Shown one piece after another: positions 3,726 through 25,579 of a stretch of DNA of 64,000 nt. This stretch comes from Rubripirellula sp. (GTDB lineage Bacteria; Planctomycetota; Planctomycetia; Pirellulales; Pirellulaceae): contig OZ244207.1 in assembly GCA_965216875.1 (NCBI GenBank), forward strand, positions 32,001 to 96,000, given 5' to 3'. Under the pieces are notes generated by a model, which was not told the origin of the DNA, searched no databases, and saw only the letters and a program-made list of their open reading frames with translations. Position 1 is the stretch's first letter. The number at the start of each line of letters is the position of its first letter. Made by a program: the position numbers and the translations under genes.

Positions 3726-5051
3726 CTATTGGGAGATTGATTCTGTCGGGCCTTCGACGACGTTCGCTTTGGTGCCTTCGCCATTTTCGGACGCTTGGTG
3801 AAACCGCCATTGTTTCCCAACGATCAAACGGGCGCCGCGCCGAAAGGTGAGATACGACCATGCCCAACTGAGGACGACCAGCAAGCGTCGACGAAATCCG
3901 GTCAAGTAGTAGATGTGGATGACGAGCCATGCGATCCATGCGCCGAAACCTCCAAGTCGAAATCTGCCGACTTCGGTGATCGCGCGACTGCGACCGATCG
4001 TTGCCATCTGCCCTTTGTCTTTGTATTGAAACTCTTGGCGTTGGCTTCCATCAAGTTCACGCAAAATGTTCTTGGCGAGGAAGCGACCTTGTTGCATGGC
4101 GACCGGGGCAAGGCCGGGCAGAGGCGAGCCGCTGTGATCAACATGCGCTTGGTCACCGGCGACAAAGACATTGGGATGCCCTTTAACGCTCAGGTCAGCC
4201 TCCACCACGACACGCCCGGTGCGATCGACTTCCAAATTCAACTTGGATCCGAGGCTTGATGCTTGAACGCCGGCGGCCCAAAGCACGGTTCCCGCGCTGA
4301 TGCGTTCTTCACTCACTTCGACCCCACTTTCGTCCACTTGATTGACAAGGCTCGAAGTCCAGACTTGAACCCCCAAGCTCTCGAGGTCTCGGGTCGCGCG
4401 TTTGGACAATTTGGGCGAAAACATCGAAAGGATTCGTGGTCCGCCTTCGATCAAAATCACACGAGCAAGCGCAGGTTCGATGTTGCGAAAGTCGCGAGCA
4501 AGGGTGAACCGGCTCATTTCGCCGATCGCGCCCGCCAGTTCAACGCCAGTGGGGCCGCCCCCAACAACAACGAAGGTAAGCAAACGCCTTTGCTCGTCGG
4601 CGTTTGTCGAACGTTCCGCCTGTTCGAACGCGGTCAGCACACGGCGCCGAATCTCGGTTGCTTGCTCAACCGTTTTGAGTCCTGGCGCGAACCTTTCCCA
4701 ATGATCTTTGCCGAAGTAACTATGTTTGGCTCCACAGGCAAGGATCAAGTAATCGTAGGGCACATCACCGAAGTCGGCTTTCACTTTCTTGCCGTCAAAG
4801 TCGACCGATTTGACTTCGCCTTGCAAGACGTGCGCGTTCTTTTGCTTTGACAAAATGCTGCGTATGGGGGCAGCGATGTCAGCGGGGCTGAGTCCCGCCA
4901 TCGCAACTTGGTAGAGCAGCGGTTGGAAGAGATGGTGATTTCGGCGATCAATCAACGTGACGTGAACATGCTTTGCGCGACGAAACCCCTTCGCAGCATT
5001 GAGGCCGGCAAACCCGCCCCCAACGATGACCACGCGAGTGATGTTGTCCAT
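3726..5051 (-). CDS. ndh: Type II NADH dehydrogenase (NDH-2)
   Basis: VVIVGGGFAG FAD motif, HLFQPLLYQVA, VVVGGGPTGVE NADH motif, AGD, YKDKGQMATIG. Confidence 0.93.
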   Translation of the reverse strand: MDNITRVVIVGGGFAGLNAAKGFRRAKHVHVTLIDRRNHHLFQPLLYQVAMAGLSPADIAAPIRSILSKQKNAHVLQGEVKSVDFDGKKVKADFGDVPYDYLILACGAKHSYFGKDHWERFAPGLKTVEQATEIRRRVLTAFEQAERSTNADEQRRLLTFVVVGGGPTGVELAGAIGEMSRFTLARDFRNIEPALARVILIEGGPRILSMFSPKLSKRATRDLESLGVQVWTSSLVNQVDESGVEVSEERISAGTVLWAAGVQASSLGSKLNLEVDRTGRVVVEADLSVKGHPNVFVAGDQAHVDHSGSPLPGLAPVAMQQGRFLAKNILRELDGSQRQEFQYKDKGQMATIGRSRAITEVGRFRLGGFGAWIAWLVIHIYYLTGFRRRLLVVLSWAWSYLTFRRGARLIVGKQWRFHQASENGEGTKANVVEGPTESISQ

Positions 5052-5366
5052 GAGAGAATTGAACCAATGACCTCTGGGATAACGATAGTAGCGTTGACTC
5101 CCTCCAATCTACATCGCAGCCAAGAATTGACTAGGTGCCGTGATGGTTCGGCAGGTCGCGCACCCAGGCATCGAATTGCTGAACCGTGAGAAATCTTTGC
5201 GTTGCGGGACGCCAATCGATCTTTCAGGCGTTCGCGTATTTGTAATCTTTCACACGGACGCTCCAGTAGGAATGATCAAAGCCTCGGTCTGCATGAGGTT
5301 TGCTGTGTTGGCTGGTAGAAACGGTTCGCGGTTGGCCGTGTCGGTGACGCGCCGTCTTGCGAGCCC

Positions 5367-8300
5367 TCACGCATCCGATTCGGCTTTTTCGGCCGTCAAC
5401 GGATCGGGTATTGACGATTTGCGAACTGAGTCACTGATGGTTGCGCGATTGAGCGATTCCACGAAAGAATTGATTCGATCCTTGAAACGCTGTGATCCCG
5501 CACAGTTGTAGGCTTCGAGTGGAGGTTTGTTGTCAAGCAGGCTATTGCTTTGCCGCAGAGTCGAGCAGATCCAACGTCTCAAGAGTCTCGCATGTCGATC
5601 GTACTGGCGGATTCGCGATCGCCACAGCCACCGAAATGCATCCTCGCCTTCACGCATTCCAAGTTGTACAAGTTCGTGGTATTTGACTTTGTGTGTTCGA
5701 TTGTCGGATTCGTCATGGTGCCAAAGGGGCGTCCAAAGCTCTTGATGCGAGTCGTTTTCGGTAGCAAGTTGGTTGGCGTCACGGACCGGCAATCCGATCC
5801 CGTATTGCAGACGCAAGATGTTTGCGCGTCGGCTGGTGAGCAAGTCGATGGCTCTCTCACCCATTTGGTACGAGCGACTGCCTCGGGCCGTCGCGAGAAA
5901 CCAGTCTCCGCGAACACTTCGCGAGCCTGGTAGTCGCGCGGGGATATAGATGTCGTTAACACGTCGCGGTTCTTGGGTCGTATGCGCAGCGGAATACCAA
6001 GTCCGGAAGGCAACAGGAATTCGGTTGCCCTCGTTTTGCGGCTTGGCGATGTTCTCGTCCGTCATCACTTCTGGCGGCAAGAGAGCAGCCATGATCAGAA
6101 GTGCCCTGTGCGCTTCTTCGTTGAAGCAAGTCAGGATTTCGGCCAGATTCCAAATGGAGTGTTCTTCTCGCGAGTGCGGAAACACATCGTCAATGGTGTG
6201 TCGATGTCCGGAGGGATGGGTGCCCATCTTGCCGTTTGACGAGTGCAGGTCCTTGTCGATTTCGGAAGCCCAGATTTCGAAGAAGAGGCAGCTGATCGTT
6301 TCTTGGATTTCGGGGGCGACAGCGAACGGAACGTAATGGTGTTGGTTGTTGGCAAGGCTGCGGTTACGAGCAAGAGCAATGTCGTTGCATTGTTCGGCCA
6401 ACTTGCGCCAATCGAGAACGTTGCCTCCCTTCATGGCGAGCCCGGGATCGGCGGTCGCCCCGGCATCTGTATCGAGTGTCGTGAACTGATCCCAGGTGTT
6501 GCGATGGTCGGATGAACCTTGCCACGCCGTACGGTTCACCATCAAGAATCCGAAGTCCCAAGCGTAGGGGACTTTCTGGACGTGAGGCTCGCGTTTGAGC
6601 AACTCAGGAAGGTCATAGCCAGTGGTGGAAAAGAAGTCAGACCGGCGAAGCGTTTTGGTCTGCAATGGTTCTTCGCTGCCCTCGAGGCTGGCGATGTTCG
6701 CAACGTGCATCGCTTCGGTGGGCTGGAACAGATGAAACGGGTCATCGGTGATGTAGTTGTAGACCTTGTCGACGACGAACGAGCCCGAGCTGTTGTCACG
6801 GCGGTAGCTCACCTCGGACGTTTCTGCGTCAAGGAACGCGTGTTGATCCTGCAGCTGCATTGAATGCGAACGAGACCAGAACTCGTCAACCTGCAGAACG
6901 AGAGTGTACGGGTACCTCGCAACTCCTTGTAGCTCGGTGAACTCGCGCAGCCGTTCGTAGTTCCCAGGGTCCTCGTCGCAGATGACACTCGGCGATTGCT
7001 CGCTGGCATTGGTCATCTTTTCAAATAGAAAGCGTATGTCTTCAATGTAGGTTTGCGCTGTCTGTGAACCTGCATAAAGGTGCACACGCAGTGGGACATA
7101 TCGCGGTGGGTCTTCGCCTTTCTCGAGCCCTTCGTAGAGTTCGAAGGCTCGCCCTACTGCCACCTTCCAGCTCTGGTTGTTTTTCAGGTGAGGCGGCCGC
7201 AGGAATTTGTCGCCGTTCGTCTGCGGGTTCTGAAACACCTTTAGCTCACGCGTGAAGCTACCCTGGCCAGAGTTTTGCTGAGGGGTGACGGTAATCGCAA
7301 CACGGCTTTCGCCAAAGTACGGCACACGCCAAGTGAACAACTGCATTGCAGTTAACTCGCGGAGCCGCCGAGTCGCTTTGAGCGCGAGCTGGGCAGTGAA
7401 CCCCCTCGCTTCGTTGCCAACGATAAGCGTGGCGATTCCCTCACGACGAAGAAAGAACATCAAGCAAGGAAGGAAAAGCGGGTCGCGCTCGACCAGTGGA
7501 TACATGTCACGAATCGCCGTCCAGTTGTCGATCACAAGTCGGACGCGCCAGCCAATCTTGCGCCGTTTTTCTTCATCTTGCCAAACGCTGCCGTCTTTAG
7601 GGTAGCCGTTCGCATCGAGCTCCAAGAGCAGAGTTGCTTGGGCTCGTTTGACGGCCTGTGAGATCACATGAAACAGACTTTCGCCCGTTTGGGTGTGGAC
7701 TTCCAGACGCCGGCAAAAGACGTGATGCCGATCCGTGATCTTTTCGCCGAGGTGACGTTCGAGTCGTTCGATCAGTCCAGCGCGTTCGAGAGTCTTGGTC
7801 GTAATCAAAATGGCAACGCAGGATTCATCGTCGTCACGCTTGCGTTTCGCTTGCGCGAGAAACGCTTTGCTCAACTTACTCTTGTAGGTTTGGTCTTCAC
7901 CAATCAATGCGACAGGGTCGGCTGTTGAGATTCCACGCGGATCGCCAATCAGTTCTATATTCCGATCGAAGTCTCGTGCTTCAAGAATTCCGTCGAGATT
8001 CTCGATTCCGAACGACGCCAGTGGCGGCGTGCTTGATTCAATCCGTTGCCCCTTCGCCTTCATGATTTGGCGATTGACAAGGTTAAGCGAATGAAGCACG
8101 TAGACGTAGGATTGGCTGACGTTGCGAGTTTCAGCGGGGATTCCCTTTTCTTCGAGTGCAAAGGGAGGCATGCCGTCGCGTTTTTGGACAGCGATGACGG
8201 GCGGGTCGTCGGCATTGAATGACTCTCCGGTCGTCGATCCTCGGCCGTCGCGGATGATCAACGCGTGAGGGCCCGGCACGTGTGCTTGGGCTCGCACCTT

Positions 8301-9224
8301 TTCGACCTGAACGAAACGCTGCAGGTAGCCATCTTCCGCTTTGGTTCCGAGGTGGATCACAGCGTCGGCAATGAATTCTTCGGGCGTCTTTGTCCCGTCA
8401 TTGTTCGCTTCGACAAGGAAGACCAAATGACATTTCCCTGCCGCTGTGCGAATTAACTGTGCGACGCGCGATCTCCGATCACGTCGCTGACCGAACGCAT
8501 CGATGTCGCCAACAAGGACTTCAAGTCCCTCGACCGCATCGACGATCATCAAGTGCTTTGGCTGGTGCGGCTCGGGCGGAGGTAGTGATCCGATCAGCCG
8601 GTTGATGTATCCCCAGTCGTCGCCAGTGGTGTGAGTGGCGAGGTCAATGAAATGAACGTGCCCTTCGTTGTCCTCCCAGATTCCATCGTCAAGCGGCAAG
8701 CGTTCACTGAGTTCGGTTTGTTCGACATCCTTCACATTGAACTGTTCGAGGACGTGGCTGATATCGTAGGGGTCGTCGATCCGACCTGGGCAGCAGTTGA
8801 GACCGAAGTTGCGCCAAGAGACGTCCGCACGTCCGAAGGTCAAATCCGTGGATGCATAAAGCACGAGTGGATCAAAGTCTTTTCGAGCGTCGCCGAGGAA
8901 CTCGTTGACGTCGGCGCGATAGCGCGCGGCCATGTGCATGGCGAGAATCGATTTGCCCACCCCGTCGATTCCGATCAAGCAGACCGAAACAGTATCCTGC
9001 TTGAGGGTCTTGCCCTTGACGAGCGAGTTGATTCCCACGCCTGGCTTGAGATTGCTGAGGATCTTTCCGTCACCGACATCGACGCGCGGGTGTCCCAGCA
9101 GAGTGTCGAGGCTTGGAATGCCGAATCGCAAAACGAGGCGGTCTTTTGCATCGGCCGCGTCTTCGGCGTCAGGAACATCAGGTGTGTCGGCCGCATCGTT
9201 GTTGTCGAGTTCTTCTTTTATCAC
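5367..9224 (-). CDS. KaiC-like double RecA-fold ATPase fused to a C-terminal solute-binding-protein-like domain
   Basis: Domain 1: FGIPSLDTLL, Walker A GIDGVGKS, Walker B MIVD, EEFIADAVIHL, RFVQVEKVR. Domain 2: FGIENLDGIL, GEDQTYKS, LVID. C-terminal: VDEFW, VPYAWDFGFLMVNR, GDWFLA, LLTS, GLPVR. Confidence 0.75.
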   Translation of the reverse strand: MIKEELDNNDAADTPDVPDAEDAADAKDRLVLRFGIPSLDTLLGHPRVDVGDGKILSNLKPGVGINSLVKGKTLKQDTVSVCLIGIDGVGKSILAMHMAARYRADVNEFLGDARKDFDPLVLYASTDLTFGRADVSWRNFGLNCCPGRIDDPYDISHVLEQFNVKDVEQTELSERLPLDDGIWEDNEGHVHFIDLATHTTGDDWGYINRLIGSLPPPEPHQPKHLMIVDAVEGLEVLVGDIDAFGQRRDRRSRVAQLIRTAAGKCHLVFLVEANNDGTKTPEEFIADAVIHLGTKAEDGYLQRFVQVEKVRAQAHVPGPHALIIRDGRGSTTGESFNADDPPVIAVQKRDGMPPFALEEKGIPAETRNVSQSYVYVLHSLNLVNRQIMKAKGQRIESSTPPLASFGIENLDGILEARDFDRNIELIGDPRGISTADPVALIGEDQTYKSKLSKAFLAQAKRKRDDDESCVAILITTKTLERAGLIERLERHLGEKITDRHHVFCRRLEVHTQTGESLFHVISQAVKRAQATLLLELDANGYPKDGSVWQDEEKRRKIGWRVRLVIDNWTAIRDMYPLVERDPLFLPCLMFFLRREGIATLIVGNEARGFTAQLALKATRRLRELTAMQLFTWRVPYFGESRVAITVTPQQNSGQGSFTRELKVFQNPQTNGDKFLRPPHLKNNQSWKVAVGRAFELYEGLEKGEDPPRYVPLRVHLYAGSQTAQTYIEDIRFLFEKMTNASEQSPSVICDEDPGNYERLREFTELQGVARYPYTLVLQVDEFWSRSHSMQLQDQHAFLDAETSEVSYRRDNSSGSFVVDKVYNYITDDPFHLFQPTEAMHVANIASLEGSEEPLQTKTLRRSDFFSTTGYDLPELLKREPHVQKVPYAWDFGFLMVNRTAWQGSSDHRNTWDQFTTLDTDAGATADPGLAMKGGNVLDWRKLAEQCNDIALARNRSLANNQHHYVPFAVAPEIQETISCLFFEIWASEIDKDLHSSNGKMGTHPSGHRHTIDDVFPHSREEHSIWNLAEILTCFNEEAHRALLIMAALLPPEVMTDENIAKPQNEGNRIPVAFRTWYSAAHTTQEPRRVNDIYIPARLPGSRSVRGDWFLATARGSRSYQMGERAIDLLTSRRANILRLQYGIGLPVRDANQLATENDSHQELWTPLWHHDESDNRTHKVKYHELVQLGMREGEDAFRWLWRSRIRQYDRHARLLRRWICSTLRQSNSLLDNKPPLEAYNCAGSQRFKDRINSFVESLNRATISDSVRKSSIPDPLTAEKAESDA

Positions 9225-9230
9225 GGTTGG

Positions 9231-10640
9231 CTACTCGCCCTGTAAATCGAGATTTCGTGCCACGGCGACCAGCCCCTCGTAGACCTCGTCTGGGACATCG
9301 GGGACGTCTGGACCTGACGGCTTGTTCTGCGCAAGGGCCTTGGCAAAGTACTGGCGTCCAAGGCAGTCGTGTAAGAAATTGACATGAGGTGTCAGAGAAC
9401 CAATTCCGGACGCGACTAACGCGTTTGTCGAGGCGGGCGTCCGCCGCCAGAGCGTCGGCACAACGGTGGTCCAGGTAGTGCCTTCGTGGGTGAATGCAAT
9501 CTGTTTCAAGTGGACCGCGGCGAGAATTCGCTTTCCAATCAGCCCGCGTTTTGACGAAGTTTCGACTGCTGTCGCCTCAAAAACCTTGGTGAAAACATCT
9601 TGTAGCGAACCGGCATGCAACGTTGTCACAACGAGGTGCCCCGTTCCTGCGAAGTCAATCAGTTCCTTGAGGTCTTGCTTCTTGCGGGTCTCGCCCACAA
9701 GCATGCAGGCTGGTGTCTGACGCAACGCGTCGACAAAGACATCGGCAAGGTCGTCGTAGTCTTTGTTGTTTCGGTCCCGTGCTGTGTAATCAATGATGTC
9801 GGATAGTTGCGGGACTCCATCCCGCGGTGGTTTTGCAAACCATGTTTCAACCGGGTCTTCACACGTCAGCAAATGGGGATTGCGCTCTTTGTGTTTTCGC
9901 AAAAAGCCGTAGGTCTTCTCATGCTCAAAGAGCATGTGGATCATGGCTCGAGTGATCAGGCTTTTGGCGCTCTTGGTTTGTCCCGCAATCAATATCGCGC
10001 CGTGGAGCGATTCCAAGGCTGGCTCGGGACGTTTCTTTTCTTGTCGCGGCTCATGAAGGAACACCTCGTTGAACAGCATTTCGGCAATTTGTGCAATGCT
10101 GCAAGTGTTCGGTGGATCAAAGTCCGTCTTTCCCTTGTAACCCGACGTTTTGACGAGCTTGTTGATCCGATCCTGCTTCGTTTCGATGACGGGGCTGGCT
10201 GTTTCGCCCTCGAGCCTGATGACCCATTTGGCAGTGCGGAGTTCGGCTAGGATTTCATCAGGTGTCTTGTCCTGGTTGGTTTCAAGATTGAGAAACGTTT
10301 CGAGTTGCTTTTTCGCAGTCTTGATGTCGCTACCGTCCGCTCGGACGGTCGTGCTCGTTAACGTTTCACGCTTTTTCTCCTCACCGCGCACGTTGCTGCA
10401 CATGCAGAGGAGGCATCGGCCCTTGAACTTCACTTCCGTGTCGTCTGGCAGTCTCGCAGTGAACTCATGATCTGCGCTAAGGGAATGTTCTAACGAAGCA
10501 TCGGTGTTAGAAAACTCCTTGGCGAGTCTATGAAGGCCGTTGTCCAAGTAGAACGTGAAGTCGCTATCCAATTGAATGTTCGACCACACCTTCGTTTCGT
10601 GGTTATAGTCAACTCGACCGTAAAGAGTAGGGACAACCAA
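9231..10640 (-). CDS. PilT/VirB11 (T2SS/T4P) family ATPase-like protein with degenerate Walker A
   Basis: GAILIAGQTKSAKS, Asp box TCEDPVE, ALRQTPACMLVGETR, His box GTGHLVVTTLH; start codon uncertain (TTG). Confidence 0.8.
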   Translation of the reverse strand: MVVPTLYGRVDYNHETKVWSNIQLDSDFTFYLDNGLHRLAKEFSNTDASLEHSLSADHEFTARLPDDTEVKFKGRCLLCMCSNVRGEEKKRETLTSTTVRADGSDIKTAKKQLETFLNLETNQDKTPDEILAELRTAKWVIRLEGETASPVIETKQDRINKLVKTSGYKGKTDFDPPNTCSIAQIAEMLFNEVFLHEPRQEKKRPEPALESLHGAILIAGQTKSAKSLITRAMIHMLFEHEKTYGFLRKHKERNPHLLTCEDPVETWFAKPPRDGVPQLSDIIDYTARDRNNKDYDDLADVFVDALRQTPACMLVGETRKKQDLKELIDFAGTGHLVVTTLHAGSLQDVFTKVFEATAVETSSKRGLIGKRILAAVHLKQIAFTHEGTTWTTVVPTLWRRTPASTNALVASGIGSLTPHVNFLHDCLGRQYFAKALAQNKPSGPDVPDVPDEVYEGLVAVARNLDLQGE

Positions 10641-10822
10641 TTGCTTGCTGGTCCATCGTCGTGGTTCTCTCGAAGAGCCGGAGCCATCCAGGAAAGCTCA
10701 CGGCGCACCGCCTTGGTGGGAGCTTGAAACTACGTACGCGAACAACCAGCGTCTATGGAAACCAGAGGGAAGGCCTGGGGACACCCTTCGGGGCAATCGC
10801 GACTTGCCAGGCCTCGCGCCTG

Positions 10823-10918
10823 CGTAGGGTGTGTGCTTGCACGCACCGCCAAGAGACCAAGCACGGAGAGACCAAGCGGGAAGAGACAAGCTTGGTGCGC
10901 GCAAGCACACACCCTACG
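10823..10918. repeat. GTAG-type REP pair (family A)
   Basis: CGTAGGGTGTGTGCTTGCACGCACC ... GGTGCGCGCAAGCACACACCCTACG inverted pair; further copies at 36428-36829 and 51094. Confidence 0.85.
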
Positions 10919-10939
10919 GAAGAGATTTGATACTGCGGA

Positions 10940-13129
10940 CTAGTTTGTGGCGATCATGTCGAAGAGGTCGCTGGGGTTTGCCGCGCTGAGGATGCGGTCG
11001 CGCTGGGTTGGGTTTCCGATGAGTCGGGCGATGAAGGAGAGATGATCGAGATGCTCGTCGGCTTTGCCAATCGGGCTGAGAAGCATAAAGACGATCTCGA
11101 TCGGACGCCCTGTGAGTGGACAAATGACTTGGTTGTTCGGTCGCGCAACGACCACGCTGGTTTGCTCGACTTCGGATGTCCAAGCGTGTGGCAGCGCGAT
11201 GCCATTTCCCAAAAGACTTGTGTACTCTTCCTCGCGTTCCCACATGTTTGTCAGCAGTTTCTCTGCGTCGATTGCTGGGTTGCGTTTTTGTAGATGCTCT
11301 ACCATCTCACGGTACAGGTCCTTCAGTTCGCCACGATCGCTGAAGATCACATCCTCGCGATTGAGTGGCAAACGGAGGCGTTGTTGTCCGAGTTGCCAGT
11401 CGTACACCAACCACTCTTCGTCATCGGGCGATGCTTGTTCGGGGCTGCCCGCGATGACGGACTTGGCTCGCACCGTCATCATGATCTCTTCGGGCAGTGG
11501 TGGTGCGCCCGAGTCACTTGCCCGGTTATGAAGCGGGGCGGGGCCGCTGCCAGGTTCCATCCAACGATTCAGCGGTATCTCTTTCCAAACGCGTGTGCCA
11601 GCGAGAAGGTGTTGGTTGTCCGTCGTTTCATAACCCGACTTTTCCCAGCGTAGTATCTGTTTGCCCTCGAGCAACTCGGACCATCGGCTGCAGAGCATGC
11701 GGTTGAGGTCGGGATTGGGGGTGAGCGCGAGCAGGTTCCCGCACGCGAAAAGCGACGGGTGTTCTTCGGGCTTGAGCAACATCGCATCTTCGTTCAACGC
11801 GATCAGTCCCTCTTGTTGGGCGAGCCGGATTTCTCTGGCATTGGTGTCGATCAAGACAACGGAAACACCATGTTTGCGAAAGAATCTCGCGATCTGTCGG
11901 CCGAGGGCATGGCAACCGACAATCACCCAGCCATCGGGTACGGGGCGAAGCACGCCAAGGAAGTGCCCAACCGTCCCCGCCGTGAAGCCTTGAATGATCA
12001 CGGTGGCGGCGATCACCGAATAGGTAAACGCCTCAAGAAAAGGGGCCTCTTTGGAACCCGACTCGGTCATTGCCAAGGCAAACACGGAAGCCATGGATGC
12101 AGCCACAATGCCACGTGGCGCGATCCAACTGAGAAAGAGTTTCTCGTTCAGTTTCAGGTTGCTGCGGCGAGTCGACAAAAAGACATTCAGCGGTCGAATG
12201 ACAAACATCATGCCCAACACAACCGCGGGCAGTTGCCAACCGTAATCGAAAAAAGCAGAGAGTTTCAGATTGGCGGCCAACAAGACAAAGAGAAGTCCAA
12301 TCAAGAAGTCCTTCAGTTCCGCCTTGTAACTGACAATGTCCCTTTGCTGAGGCGTTTTGAGCAAGCCGAGAATCAGTCCTGCGACCGTAACGCTTAGCAA
12401 ACCGCTTTCGGAAATCATCAGGTCGGCGATCGCAAAGTTCAACATCGCCATCGCGAGCACGAAGATGTTGGTGTGCTCTTCGTCAATCCATCGGCGACGA
12501 AGAACAAAGTCGAGTGCATAGCCAAAGGCGACGCCAAGAACGCTGCCGATCGCGAAGCGGAGCAAAAAGTCCTGTAGCACTAACTGTTGCGATCCATCTG
12601 TGCTGACATAGTATTCAAAGCAAAGCAGCGCAATGAACACGCCGATCGGATCAATAAGCACTCCCTCCCAGTGCAAGATGGCCTGCAGTTTGGGCTGAGC
12701 CCGAATGCGATGTAAAAGGGGACCGATGACAGTCGGTCCCGTGACGATCACCAGACTTGCCGACATGAGGCAGAAGACCCAGTCGAAACCGAATGCAAGT
12801 TTAAGGAGCGCCGTGGTGCCCAGCCATGTGACCAGCACGCCAACGGACAGGATGCGAAGAATCTCGCTACTGACAGTCTTGTAGTCGCTAATGTCAAGCG
12901 TCAGCCCGCCTTCGAACAAAATGATCGCGACGGCAAGCGAGATGAGGATACCGAGTCCGTCACCAAGTGCACTCGGGTTCACAATGCCCAAGCATTCGGG
13001 GCCGGCAAGGACACCACCGATCAAGAGCAACGCGATCGCCGAGGTGCGAAGGTAATTGGCGATCGAAAAAAGGCACACGCCCAGGGCGGCAGCCACCGTA
13101 AAGGTTGTGAGCAGTTCGTGAGGATGCAT
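10940..13129 (-). CDS. NhaP/CPA1 cation:proton antiporter with TrkA-N (RCK) and PTS EIIA domains
   Basis: Many TM helices, LFEGGL, TGPTV, EGVLID, IAPRGIVAAS; IVGCHALG Rossmann motif; EREEEYTSLLGNGIALPH EIIA motif. Confidence 0.9.
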   Translation of the reverse strand: MHPHELLTTFTVAAALGVCLFSIANYLRTSAIALLLIGGVLAGPECLGIVNPSALGDGLGILISLAVAIILFEGGLTLDISDYKTVSSEILRILSVGVLVTWLGTTALLKLAFGFDWVFCLMSASLVIVTGPTVIGPLLHRIRAQPKLQAILHWEGVLIDPIGVFIALLCFEYYVSTDGSQQLVLQDFLLRFAIGSVLGVAFGYALDFVLRRRWIDEEHTNIFVLAMAMLNFAIADLMISESGLLSVTVAGLILGLLKTPQQRDIVSYKAELKDFLIGLLFVLLAANLKLSAFFDYGWQLPAVVLGMMFVIRPLNVFLSTRRSNLKLNEKLFLSWIAPRGIVAASMASVFALAMTESGSKEAPFLEAFTYSVIAATVIIQGFTAGTVGHFLGVLRPVPDGWVIVGCHALGRQIARFFRKHGVSVVLIDTNAREIRLAQQEGLIALNEDAMLLKPEEHPSLFACGNLLALTPNPDLNRMLCSRWSELLEGKQILRWEKSGYETTDNQHLLAGTRVWKEIPLNRWMEPGSGPAPLHNRASDSGAPPLPEEIMMTVRAKSVIAGSPEQASPDDEEWLVYDWQLGQQRLRLPLNREDVIFSDRGELKDLYREMVEHLQKRNPAIDAEKLLTNMWEREEEYTSLLGNGIALPHAWTSEVEQTSVVVARPNNQVICPLTGRPIEIVFMLLSPIGKADEHLDHLSFIARLIGNPTQRDRILSAANPSDLFDMIATN

Positions 13130-21329: not shown

Positions 21330-21824
21330 TCACGCGCGGCTTTTGGCCGCGTACATTTCGGCGTATTCGATCGCCCAGGCGTCGATCAGTCGCTGGAATT
21401 CTTCGACGTCGACTTCGGCAACGGGAACAAAATGCGAGCGATTGAAGAGCTCGCGATTCATGACCGTTCCCTTGCCCTTGAGCTCAAGCACCTTGAGGTG
21501 ACTGAAGGGACGGATGACCATTTCGAGGCGACTGTACTGGTTGCTGCGACGGCCAGCTTCGATCCGCAGGTCATCTCGATAGGCAGCTTCGCCCCAGCCG
21601 ACTTCACCAAAAAGTGATTCGGTACGAAACCCAGGGAAGTGATCCGCCACGCCGTGCACCGATTGTTCGATTCGATCCGAAAGCGACAAACGGTACGACG
21701 TGTGAAGCCGTTTGAGCTCCTCTTCGCTCAATTCCTTTTGACGCTCTTGGTTCGCTTTGTGATCGGCTCGCTGCTTGCCACGTTCGATCGCCGACTCAAG
21801 CCTTGATTTGAAGTCGTCGCTCAT
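21330..21824 (-). CDS. Hypothetical protein
   Basis: 164-aa ORF translationally coupled to the upstream Tex-like gene (stop and start overlap at 21824). Confidence 0.8.
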   Translation of the reverse strand: MSDDFKSRLESAIERGKQRADHKANQERQKELSEEELKRLHTSYRLSLSDRIEQSVHGVADHFPGFRTESLFGEVGWGEAAYRDDLRIEAGRRSNQYSRLEMVIRPFSHLKVLELKGKGTVMNRELFNRSHFVPVAEVDVEEFQRLIDAWAIEYAEMYAAKSRA

Positions 21825-24800
21825 CAGTTGGTCGTGTCCGAAGGAGTCGTTGGCTCACCGCTTGCATCCGGTTTTGCGTCACTCGAGCTTGCTGCGTCGG
21901 AGTCCGACTTGGCGGGCTCGGGTGTTTGTGGAGCCGCAGCTTCGGGAGCGGCTGGTTTCGAATCGTCACTCGAAGGCGGCGCGGCTTCGGTTGCTTCGGG
22001 TGGATCGGCGGCTGGCGGATCGGCCGGTTGCGAAGCGGCAGGAGTCGACTCCGCGGGCTTCGCATCGTCCTGAGGCTTCTTCTTTTCCTGTTCGTCATTG
22101 CTAAAGAACTGCATCAGGTCACCGAACGAACGCATCGGTTCGTCGCCCTTTTGCATGGCGTCGGTGATCGGCTTGGCGGGTTCCTTGCTGACGACTCGGT
22201 AGGACTCAGGCTTTTTGTCGCGCCGTCGTCCACCGCCACGTTGATCACGCGAACGGTTGCCACCGCGTCCGTCACCACCGCGAGGTTTGGCGCCACCTGG
22301 TTTCCCGGCACCTTGTCGGCCACGACCTTGTCCTTGACCACGTCCCTGACCGCCGCCACCGCCACCGCGTGCGCCCTGTTCTCGGTCACCACCTTGTCGT
22401 CCGCCGCCACGACGTTTGTCACCGCCGCGTCCGCCACCACGGCCACCTCGGTCGCCACGTGAATCACGATGACGTTTTTGTTCTTGAAGCTCTGCCTCGC
22501 GTTGTGGCGAAATCGCACTCAACGCAACACGACGACGCTTTTCATCAACGCCGGTGACCCATGCGGTCACCACGTCGCCAACCTGTACGGCTTCGTGCAA
22601 ATCTTCGACAAAACCATCCGAGACTTTGCTGACGTGAATCAAACCGCTGCAGTCGGGAGCGAGTTCAACAAAGACACCAAACGGCATCACACCGACAACC
22701 ACGCCGATCACCTGATCGCCTTGCTTGAGGCTTTTCAGGCTTGGCATGGTCGAGAGAACAGCGGGCGGTGTTCCACCAAAGTCGCCATCGCCAAACGGAT
22801 CGCAAAGCGAGCTGACCAATTGCCTGACGCGATTGGCACCAACCTGCCACTCCTTGATGCACTTGTTGATCTTCGCCTCCTCAGGAAGCGGATGCCGAAT
22901 GGGGGCATGCACCTCGGGAGCCGGCGGTGCCGCTTCGGGGGCCGCAGTAGCTTCGGGGGCCGGTGCATCGCTCGAAGCCGACGTTTCCGCGGTCGACTCA
23001 CCCGAATCTGCTGCCTCTGTTGATTCCGAAGTCTCAGCTGTGCTTTCGGCTTCGCCGCTTGATGCTGCTTCTTCTGCTGCGGGCTCGCTCGGCGTTTCGC
23101 CAGCACTTTCTTCTGCTTCGCTGCTGGCAGCTTCCGTTTCTGCTTCGCCGCTGGAAGAAGCGGCATCATCCGTCTTCGGTTCGGCTTCGGTCGCTTCGGT
23201 AAGCTCGCCACCGAAGTTCGGGTCGGGTTCGGCCGTTTCGACGCTCAGCTCCGAGGTCGAGGACTCGGCGGCCACTTCCTCGGCCGCTACTGGAGTCTCT
23301 TCCTTCTTTTCGGGCTCGTCGAAATTCGGCTCTTCGTAGCCCGGCGGGCATTGCGGTGGGAGCTCGAGGTCGAGAGCCGCGGCCAACTTCTTGGCCAACG
23401 CGTAATCGTCTGGATGGACCAAGGTGCCATCAAGGCTCTCTTCACTATTGAAGACGCGCAGGAATGGCAACGCTTGACGTGAACTGACTGAATCGGGCCA
23501 GCCTTCCAACTCGGCAACCGAATCGCGCGAAGTGAAGAGCTCATTGCGCCGAGCGGTATCGATTTCCTCGGCGATCTTTTCGGACATGCCGGGCAAACGG
23601 GTCAGCCATGCGGGCGAGGCTGAATTGACGTCGACACCACCGCGCGACGCGCCGCTGATCATGACGTTCTCGAGCGTCGACTGCAGTGCTTGGTCGGAAA
23701 GCTCACGCTGGAACGAGCCAAGTCGCAGCTTCAACGGGTCGACCTTGGCCAGGGCTTGAGCTGGCTGCAACACGGAAAACGCGAGCCATGCGGCGGCGCG
23801 GAATCGACGCGGCGTCGTTTTCATTTCTTGATCGCCCGCCGCACTTCCTGCGTAGGCGTCGGCACCACTTCGATCGGCGAGTGTCCAGCGCAGCGTGCTG
23901 GCTGGCGACTGCTCGATCAGGTCGCCGACTGCAACCATCGTGGCGCGTCGTGACGGGCCGTTGCTGATCACGATCAAGTCGACGTGATAGGTGTGAATCA
24001 GTTCGCCCATTCGCGAGACAGCTTGTTGACGCGGTCCCGAAGCGAGTTGGCAGGGCAAGTCTTCGTTGTGGAGCAGTCGTCCATCGGCAGCCACAATCGC
24101 GGTCGCCGCCGTTCGAGGACCGACGGCATCGATCGACATGATCACTTTGGCTGTGATCGCGCCGCGGTCGGTCTGACGGCGAAGGTGCTCGGCCGCAATG
24201 CCGACCAATCGCGTCGACGCGCGCTCTTGAAGCTCATCCCACCAAGCCGCCTCGGCAGCTTCGCGAATGTCGGCCTCGTGCTGCAGTACCGTTTCCCGCA
24301 GCTTCGCTTCGAGGTGGCGATTGAATCCACCTGCTGTGCGCTGCAGTTCGGCAACGAGCTTCGATGCGTCGTATTCAAACGAGCATTGGGCGACTTGGCT
24401 GCGAAGGGCCCGGGCCAGCATCACGATTTGGAACGAACTCAGTTTGCTACCAGCGATTCGTTTCCCTTCAAGCGGTTTGAGAACGCTGACCAACCAACGC
24501 CGACGACGTTGACGCGGCGAGATCTTCTTGGCCTTCTTGCCCGCCTTTGCGTTTCCTTTGCCACCCTGCTTTTCAGCAGCCTTGGTTTCAGCAGCCTTGG
24601 TTTCAGCGCCCTTCGTTTCGGCAGTTGGGGGCTCAGCAGTTGGTGCTTCCGCCGTTTCGCTTGCGTCGGTTGGCTTGCTTTCCTCAGCTGGCTTGGCCTC
24701 CGCTTCCGCCGGAGCTTCTGCAGCTGGAGTTTCAACCGCCGGAGCTGCGTCCGACGAAGTCTCCGTTGGCTGAGTCTCTTCGGCAGCCGCAGGTGCCGCT

Positions 24801-25579
24801 GGTGTTTCCGCTTCTGCCGTCGGCGGCTGCTGAGCTTCCGCTGGATCGGCCGGAGCCGATTCGCTTGCCACATTGCTGCCAGAGGCAGCTTCTGCTTCGG
24901 CGGTCTCCGTTGGCGTCACCTCGGAAGCTTGCCCAGCATCACTCGTCGCTGCTTGAGCCGGGGCTACATCGGCCGGCGCGTCGGATTCAGACTCATCGCC
25001 ACTTGTGTGTGGGTCGTGGATTGCAGAGATATGAATCTTTGCATTTTTGACAAGCCATCGGACGGCCGAGTTGATCAGCCTCGGGTCACCAAGAATGCGT
25101 TGAGCGAGCGCTTGCTCGATGCCTTCAACCGCCTTGCCCGCGTCATCGACCCCTTCGATTTTGCCAGCGATCTGGTTGAGGTCGTCGCCGTCACCTTTTT
25201 GAGGGTTCAGCAATCGCACGGCCAGCTGAACGGCCGCATCCACGTGCTCGGACGATTCAGACTTGAGTCGACGTCCGATGCGTTCGAGCATGCGCGTCGA
25301 GTTGGCGCGTCGAATCGACTGACCGATCGCAGGGTCTTGTAGAGTCGTTTTCTCCCAGCCAGCAATCAACTCGTCGCGTCGCTGGGCGATCGACGACTCC
25401 ATCGAAACGGCGGCGGCAAGTGCCCAGAGACTTGGCTCATCGACACCGCCGAGTTCATCGCGGCGATAGCGGGCCAGAAAGGGCGGCGCGTATCCTTGTT
25501 CGATGAGGGGAAGGGCGTTTCGCAAACTGGCTACATCACAACGCCCGCGCTGGGCAATTGCATCTAGATCGACATTCAT
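21824..25579 (-). CDS. Tex-like protein with S1 RNA-binding domain and long low-complexity inserts
   Basis: PFLARYRRDELGG Tex-N motif, YqgF-like region, HhH GVDVNSAS, LDGTLVHPDDY, S1 FGVFVEL...GLIHVS, RGG tail. Confidence 0.88.
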   Translation of the reverse strand: MNVDLDAIAQRGRCDVASLRNALPLIEQGYAPPFLARYRRDELGGVDEPSLWALAAAVSMESSIAQRRDELIAGWEKTTLQDPAIGQSIRRANSTRMLERIGRRLKSESSEHVDAAVQLAVRLLNPQKGDGDDLNQIAGKIEGVDDAGKAVEGIEQALAQRILGDPRLINSAVRWLVKNAKIHISAIHDPHTSGDESESDAPADVAPAQAATSDAGQASEVTPTETAEAEAASGSNVASESAPADPAEAQQPPTAEAETPAAPAAAEETQPTETSSDAAPAVETPAAEAPAEAEAKPAEESKPTDASETAEAPTAEPPTAETKGAETKAAETKAAEKQGGKGNAKAGKKAKKISPRQRRRRWLVSVLKPLEGKRIAGSKLSSFQIVMLARALRSQVAQCSFEYDASKLVAELQRTAGGFNRHLEAKLRETVLQHEADIREAAEAAWWDELQERASTRLVGIAAEHLRRQTDRGAITAKVIMSIDAVGPRTAATAIVAADGRLLHNEDLPCQLASGPRQQAVSRMGELIHTYHVDLIVISNGPSRRATMVAVGDLIEQSPASTLRWTLADRSGADAYAGSAAGDQEMKTTPRRFRAAAWLAFSVLQPAQALAKVDPLKLRLGSFQRELSDQALQSTLENVMISGASRGGVDVNSASPAWLTRLPGMSEKIAEEIDTARRNELFTSRDSVAELEGWPDSVSSRQALPFLRVFNSEESLDGTLVHPDDYALAKKLAAALDLELPPQCPPGYEEPNFDEPEKKEETPVAAEEVAAESSTSELSVETAEPDPNFGGELTEATEAEPKTDDAASSSGEAETEAASSEAEESAGETPSEPAAEEAASSGEAESTAETSESTEAADSGESTAETSASSDAPAPEATAAPEAAPPAPEVHAPIRHPLPEEAKINKCIKEWQVGANRVRQLVSSLCDPFGDGDFGGTPPAVLSTMPSLKSLKQGDQVIGVVVGVMPFGVFVELAPDCSGLIHVSKVSDGFVEDLHEAVQVGDVVTAWVTGVDEKRRRVALSAISPQREAELQEQKRHRDSRGDRGGRGGGRGGDKRRGGGRQGGDREQGARGGGGGGQGRGQGQGRGRQGAGKPGGAKPRGGDGRGGNRSRDQRGGGRRRDKKPESYRVVSKEPAKPITDAMQKGDEPMRSFGDLMQFFSNDEQEKKKPQDDAKPAESTPAASQPADPPAADPPEATEAAPPSSDDSKPAAPEAAAPQTPEPAKSDSDAASSSDAKPDASGEPTTPSDTTN

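Follow-up and report, generated by a model that had tools for sequence, protein, structure and literature searches.

Among the described systems closest to the gene pair discussed here is the FlaH-FlaI pair of the archaellum, in which nucleotide-bound FlaH stimulates FlaI at a 1:1 ratio and FlaH binds ATP without hydrolysis, according to the available passages of PMC6011876. A second point of reference is the proposal of archaeal KaiC-like signalling hubs (Makarova et al. 2017), whose domains are in some cases inactivated and are fused to regulatory domains such as REC, as given in excerpts of PMC5847659; the same proposal is cited in passages of PMC6393860 and PMC13700489. For cytoplasmic regulators of the SgrR type, a role in sugar-phosphate stress is stated in an excerpt of PMC4021124.

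The locus analysed lies in a 64,000-nucleotide stretch of Rubripirellula DNA (the window, to which positions below refer) and comprises two genes on the minus strand. A PilT-like ATPase gene of 469 aa (9231-10640; PF00437, PilT profile, linkage and motifs) is followed after 6 bases by a gene of 1285 aa (5367-9224) that, from its ORF, domain matches and a locus survey, encodes a KaiC-KaiC-solute-binding fusion. The first KaiC-like domain occupies about residues 30-390 (8055..9137, minus strand; PF06745, family profile and conservation), a second, degenerate KaiC-like domain about residues 400-700 (7125..8027, minus strand; weak KaiC-segment matches and motif remnants, boundaries approximate), and a family-1 solute-binding-protein fold with insertions about residues 709-1262 (5439..7100, minus strand; model, structure and profile comparison). 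The sequence-only reading concerned positions 5367-7110, which are the 3' end (last 580 codons) of the fusion ORF, and overlooked the upstream PilT-like gene, the conserved partner. Assembled contigs match the window exactly, one at 4405-8384 and another at 8355-10955, matches that are not independent since the contigs are probably source data. Codon use of the two genes is native (47th and 50th percentile), and promoter and terminator scans stayed at chance level. Upstream of the PilT-like gene lies an intergenic, REP-like short repeat (10820-10925; 43 BLAST pieces genome-wide), followed by a cation/proton antiporter joined to TrkA-N and PTS EIIA-2 domains (10940-13129), which is not conserved beside the cassette. 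Elsewhere, at 21824-25579, the window encodes a Tex-like protein of 1251 aa, longer than the family norm. A contig of a related strain covers the cassette and diverges strongly at 10076-10534, within the N-terminal part of the PilT-like gene.

From the order of its short motifs, the tail had been likened to family-1 ABC sugar-binding proteins. The motifs are present in that order, VLQVDEFW at residue 776, VPYAWDFG at 885, QETISCLFFE at 974, AFRTWYS at 1072, SVRGDWFL at 1103 and GLPVRD at 1144, with LDWRKL and AIDLLTS placed between the other tail motifs; being invariant or nearly invariant columns of 51 homologous tails (18-38% identity), they form an order that exceeds chance. An alignment-based AlphaFold model of residues 705-1285 (pLDDT 89.1, pTM 0.91) gave a two-lobed type II (MalE-like) fold, and Foldseek matched it to sugar-binding proteins across the whole domain, in agreement with a family-1 type II periplasmic-binding fold. 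Only sugar-binding proteins stood among the Foldseek matches listed, the best being MalE3 (E 5.8e-12), and a second structure search over 48,161 chains placed MalE3 at Z 22.6 (rmsd 3.3, 364 of 391 residues aligned). After rescoring, the top 11 rows were MalE3, alpha-glycoside-binding protein and TMBP (Z 21.8-22.6), with SmoF and other fold matches at Z 21.3 or below and a dinucleotide-binding protein at Z 20.1; as the margin is about 1 Z unit, the call for a trehalose/maltose subfamily is a lean.

The sequence link from the tail to binding proteins is modest. A language-model search returned SBP_bac_8 and SBP_bac_1 clusters at 0.97, and a profile of the 51 tails matched a profile built from 17 natural trehalose/maltose-type binding proteins with probability 80 (E 1.4e-5), against 0.1 for control profiles (the reversed profile and two unrelated ones); with a broader set of 8 binding proteins the probability was 71, and with a single template 11. 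Pfam matched nothing in residues 705-1285 of the fusion protein (0 matches to SBP_bac_1 or SBP_bac_8), and found SBP_bac_1 in just one of the 51 homologous tails, at E 0.009. Single-sequence PDB searches gave 0 matches, and the tail profile met no binding protein among PDB sequences; its sole match there, calexcitin (E 0.12), was dismissed as chance. The tail, about 190 residues longer than MalE3, is predicted from the model to fold like a trehalose/maltose-binding protein.

The conserved residues of the tail are likewise predicted to match a sugar pocket. Its putative members are D780, W783, D890, E975, R1074, W1076, W1108 and R1202. In profile alignment with TMBP-like proteins, D780 and W783 fall on the Asp-x-x-Trp motif, D890 and E975 on the acidic residues of DAG and YEGL respectively, R1074-x-W1076 on RNW, and W1108 on the Trp that ends LGGW. 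Counted along reference alignments, D890 and W1108 fall on D118 and W287 of alpha-glycoside-binding protein, and R1202 matches R356 by spacing only, standing six residues ahead of an aligned Tyr as the TMBP arginine does, a match made without program alignment; D118, W287 and R356 are the residues mutated in sugar-complex PDB entries matched by Foldseek. An excerpt of PMC13311272 names W295 of TMBP as a sugar-site residue. In counts over rows with a residue at the position in question, rows not being dereplicated, D780 is found in 195/199, W783 in 199/199, D890 in 198/203, W1108 in 199/205 and R1202 in 204/204; E975, at 170/205, is less conserved than the other pocket positions (97-100%). A cleft Cys979 is present in 172/205 rows. 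Two invariant charged residues, R1105 (205/205) and D1107 (203/205), replace the Leu and Gly of the TMBP group (Arg-Gly-Asp-Trp against Leu-Gly-Gly-Trp), so that the ligand is probably not plain trehalose. Neighbouring genes do not name it either, since the genes around related loci show no recurrent family of sugar metabolism or of transporters. The earlier claim of a small-molecule sensor stands in part: residues conserved at aligned sugar-pocket positions indirectly favour the binding of a small molecule, and sensing itself stays a proposal.

The attachment of this tail to a KaiC-like ATPase is borne out by the single ORF, by a PF06745 match in its N-terminal part (E 2e-9) and by recurrence in related loci. 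A family profile of the KaiC half best matches KaiC (E 7.7e-24) and then archaeal KaiC-like proteins, and the plan is that of tandem RecA-type domains, the first clear and the second recognized by weak matches and motif remnants. In the first domain Walker A (85-92), Ser-Thr-Asp (125-127), the Walker B Asp229 and a Lys309-x-Arg311 finger can be identified, with G85, G88, G90, K91 and S92 in 162/162 rows, D229 and K309 each in 168/168, and R311 in 167/168. D127 (162/163) and L128 (149/163) stand where KaiC has its catalytic Glu-Glu after strand 2, a register set by eye; the ATP site is retained and the catalytic Glu position is Asp, so that this domain could be slow or inactive. The second domain retains a Walker A remnant (G442, T446, K448) and has, again in a register set by eye, no conserved Ser/Thr at 622-626 and no Lys/Arg of the Lys-x-Arg finger at 644-647, the positions taken here as those of the KaiC phosphorylation pair and finger. 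With Asp in place of the catalytic Glu in one domain and degeneration of the other, the fusion is not a working clock KaiC; this genome lacks KaiB, which 12 of the 46 host genomes encode. The KaiC half would instead behave as a nucleotide-dependent switch.

As far as its sequence indicates, the fusion protein, tail included, probably stays within the cell. A cytoplasmic location, proposed earlier, is supported by the absence of a hydrophobic segment: the 19-residue hydropathy of the fusion protein peaks at 1.53, on the Walker A strand, giving no TM segment, and across 54 homologue rows it exceeds 1.8 in one and 2.0 in none. The N-terminus is acidic, and from hydropathy and this acidic N-terminus no export signal or membrane anchor is seen. 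Nor does an ABC permease occur among the 34 window ORFs scanned, 8 in one scan and 26 from a list of 37 in another, as the sequence-only reading had held, and a binding-protein-dependent permease is found in 1 of 86 nearest neighbours of related loci. No stand-alone exported tail appeared among 70 protein matches (short ones not checked singly) or the best 150 of 1034 clusters.

A genome scan with tail-only patterns found 62 loci, in Planctomycetota, Acidobacteriota, Armatimonadota, Myxococcota, Verrucomicrobiota and Betaproteobacteria. Tail and KaiC half share one ORF in 59 of them, the exceptions being a contig-cut locus, a frameshifted remnant and a short match; among fetched proteins the KaiC half is present in 176/183, the other 7 starting at or just ahead of the tail. 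The tail profile matches 1034 clusters (50% identity) at E 0.001 and 401 at 1e-30, a family annotated merely as KaiC or RAD55 ATPase, and the nearest named relative, in a search restricted to long proteins, is a Roseimaritima ulvae protein with 51% identity across the tail. The tail is found in 0 of 60 related genomes, including two of the same genus. A FastTree tail tree (51 rows, midpoint root) follows the phyla for the most part but places Betaproteobacteria, Verrucomicrobia and Myxococcales within Acidobacteria; its deep branches are weakly supported. A recent foreign origin of the cassette is not supported, since codon use is native; no relatives were found in viral contigs or plasmids, and the ndh gene sits in a different context in same-genus genome G001, so synteny shows no insertion site. 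In six loci (L036, L043, L055, L058, L062 and L040) the fusion is interrupted by stops or frameshifts, from decay or assembly error.

The PilT-like gene lies directly upstream of the fusion in 51 of the 62 loci (44 by ORF clustering and 7 by tblastn), and in 51 of the 55 that have more than 1 kb of upstream DNA. Seven of the 11 loci without it are truncated by the beginning of the contig, which leaves four true absences: L017 and L057, both Myxococcales, together with L040 and L061. In 41 of 44 pairs, among them the pair of this window, the spacing of the two genes is between -31 and +27 bases. The other neighbours vary, none of their families being present at more than 10 loci. Pairwise identities of the two proteins correlate at 0.79-0.85, a value to be expected of any co-inherited operon, since shared descent by itself can produce it. 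The PilT-like protein matches PF00437 (E 1e-15), and its family profile matches PilT best (E 2.3e-30), PilT/PilU being its closest families; against TIGR01420 it scores 53.5 bits, far below the PilT family threshold of 319.1. The Walker A Lys, Asp box, Walker B Glu, His box and both N-domain arginines are kept in 42-43 of 43 PilT-like rows. The C-terminal helix, VANLIREN in the genome's own PilT and known as the 'AIRNLIRE' helix, is eroded, the Ile-Arg-Glu being absent and only Leu408 and Gly412 kept; the protein also carries insertions, and its gene lies outside pilus operons.

The partner is not obligatory for the fusion architecture, since L017 and L057 carry a full fusion without it and no PilT-like gene was found in the flanking DNA present at 10 sister-type loci (0/10, several contigs being short). 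One such distant KaiC-KaiC-binding-protein fusion is encoded in this genome itself (1374 aa, G000:C1:1475372-1479496, equal to L063:13373-17497, minus strand). It has a 330-aa N-terminal extension without a Pfam family and no PilT-like neighbour, is overlapped on its upstream side by an unknown gene of 249 aa, has a CinA-N-like gene on its downstream side, shows codon use near the 6th percentile, and was not found in the 60 relatives. No partner enzyme common to the sister loci was found, their neighbours differing and several contigs being short. At L057:5824-15196 and L017:1089-7506 two different fusions stand tail to tail, the first without a PilT-like gene; the second fusion of L057 is preceded by a 603-aa HD-CE gene and keeps a Glu-Glu motif. 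Protein P0193, which may be a deletion product or an assembly chimera, begins as the N-terminal half of a type I restriction subunit and continues with the last part of the second KaiC domain and a complete tail. Three acidobacterial fusions of 1864-1912 aa (L014:9893-15577, L018:9968-15562 and L059:7146-12884) have in common an insertion of roughly 500 aa within their second KaiC domain, which matches no Pfam family and in two of the three has no HD pair; canonical PilT has no match in their genomes.

Because the PilT-like gene is nearly always directly upstream, the pair is likely to be a sugar-gated on/off switch for a motor. The reading put forward here is that the fusion protein would act as a cytoplasmic ligand-gated switch through which the PilT-like motor is controlled, much as FlaI is by FlaH, and its chances are put at a little less than even. 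The tail would close on an intracellular sugar-type metabolite, possibly an alpha-glycoside or a charged derivative, given that the pocket gains the invariant Arg1105 and Asp1107. Closure would affect the nucleotide state of the first domain by way of the second, which is catalytically dead, and the nucleotide-bound KaiC ring would dock onto the PilT-like hexamer and alter its ATP turnover, comparable to archaeal FlaH on FlaI. The motor would handle a cytoplasmic client and would not be the cell's pilus retraction motor. Control of the KaiC ring had been proposed earlier; the PilT-like ATPase is more likely the output of the fusion protein than the ring by itself.

Other readings fit parts of the same evidence. 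That the cassette is an anti-phage or conflict system, in which the tail would sense a nucleotide-sugar or a metabolite tied to infection and the effector would be the PilT-like motor or, at sister loci, a swapped enzyme, is unlikely, even though it is a rare, patchy, self-contained two-gene unit (0/60 relatives, 62 loci in several phyla) with cross-phylum nesting in the weakly supported deep tail tree. The HD-CE gene ahead of the sister fusion in L057 would be a partner swap, P0193 carries half a restriction subunit on its second domain and tail, AbiU2 HEPN, relaxase and transposase each occur as single neighbours, and the fold matches include a dinucleotide-binding protein (Z 20.1). However, PADLOC (2023 library, E 1e-8) matches neither the fusion nor the PilT-like protein (0 families), viral contigs and plasmids yielded no relatives, codon use is native, and the main cassette is without a toxic effector domain. 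PADLOC matches among neighbours, a count without background control, number 8/113 upstream and 5/110 downstream, mostly generic kinases, ABC and ankyrin proteins. It is quite unlikely that the pair is instead a metabolite-dependent regulator of host type IV/Tad pili or type II secretion, in which the PilT-like protein would serve the membrane platform as an accessory motor: pilus gene families do not recur beside the cassette, the C-terminal helix is eroded, the score is 53 bits against a PilT-family cut-off of 319, and canonical PilT is unmatched in 7 of 45 hosts, including G153 with its single 9.5-Mb chromosome. What speaks for such a regulator is that the closest families of the PilT-like protein are PilT/PilU, that FlaH and FlaI serve a pilus-type machine, and that canonical PilT is present in 38/45 host genomes; among hosts without it, all five checked have assembly ATPases and platform proteins; these are encoded in G153.

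Thiaminase I is an enzyme on the MalE fold, and a tail that is no longer a small-molecule sensor, having become an enzyme on that fold or a structural or protein-binding cap, would account for the roughly 190 residues extra over MalE3, the new invariant charged R1105 and D1107, and the cleft Cys979 of 172/205 rows. Such a tail is nonetheless improbable. The cysteine is inherited, since Glu975 and Cys979 align with the same motif in TMBP; it is replaced in 33/205 rows, and the conserved set fits a sugar pocket. A KaiC-type timer entrained by a sugar signal is hardly to be credited: the domains are in tandem and the best solved relatives are KaiC, but KaiB is absent here and found in only 12/46 hosts, and the second domain is without the conserved Ser/Thr pair and Lys-x-Arg finger.

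Alongside the ligand-gated switch on a PilT-like motor, a broader generalization can be offered, and only tentatively. A class of sensor-motor machines may exist in which a cytoplasmic trehalose-type binding domain gates a KaiC-like double ring driving a PilT-derived unfoldase or disassembly motor, without a pilus or membrane part. In sister versions the same sensor would be coupled to a different effector, such as an HD hydrolase or an N-terminal helical domain, perhaps as part of an immune or stress pathway responding to a sugar-like second messenger.

If the proposal is true, a transport-type sugar-binding protein has become an allosteric sensor that works inside the cell on a KaiC-like ATPase, and bacteria possess a counterpart of the FlaH-FlaI pairing without a filament. 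The signalling-hub role of KaiC-like proteins would then become directly testable, the system offering a pair of soluble proteins, a pocket defined by residues that do not vary, and ATPase activity as a read-out. The changes in the pocket may hint at an intracellular signal that has gone unrecognised. The parts are known; neither the KaiC/binding-protein fusion nor the gene pair was found described in the literature searched, which consisted of listings and the beginnings of abstracts. Makarova 2017 lay beyond its scope, and the supplement of that paper could list such a fusion. Compared with the archaeal hubs proposed by Makarova et al. (2017), the fusion is bacterial, and the citing passages name no solute-binding fusion.

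The modelled tail has the same two-lobed fold as trehalose/maltose-binding proteins (T. litoralis TMBP 1eu8, T. maritima MalE3 6dtq, alpha-glycoside-binding protein 6j9w and SmoF 7ofy), at Z 21-22.6, rmsd 3.2-3.4, 364-377 residues aligned and 14-19% identity. Unlike these proteins, it shows no export signal, stands behind an ATPase, has no linked permease and carries about 190 extra residues; its pocket residues align with theirs except for Arg-Gly-Asp-Trp in place of Leu-Gly-Gly-Trp. With cyanobacterial KaiC the fusion shares tandem RecA-type domains and, in the first, Walker A, Walker B, EEF-x-x-D and Lys-x-Arg; it differs in the Asp at the catalytic Glu, a degenerate second domain without phosphorylation pair or finger, the absence of KaiB from the genome, the 580-aa sensor-like tail and the PilT-like partner. 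The latter resembles PilT/PilU in all catalytic motifs and both N-domain arginines, but it falls far under the family cut-off, has an eroded C-terminal helix and insertions, and is encoded outside pilus operons. As in the archaellum pair FlaH (ArlH) and FlaI (ArlI), a RecA/KaiC-family nucleotide-binding protein is paired with a pilus-type ATPase, whereas the pair here is bacterial, has a double KaiC-like domain with a predicted ligand-binding tail, and employs a PilT-like rather than a FlaI-like ATPase, with no linked membrane platform or filament genes. The likeness to SgrR-type cytoplasmic regulators lies in the reuse of a transport-type binding domain within the cell: SgrR carries a family-5 binding domain on a DNA-binding protein, whereas the tail of the fusion is predicted to be of family 1 and is borne on an ATPase.
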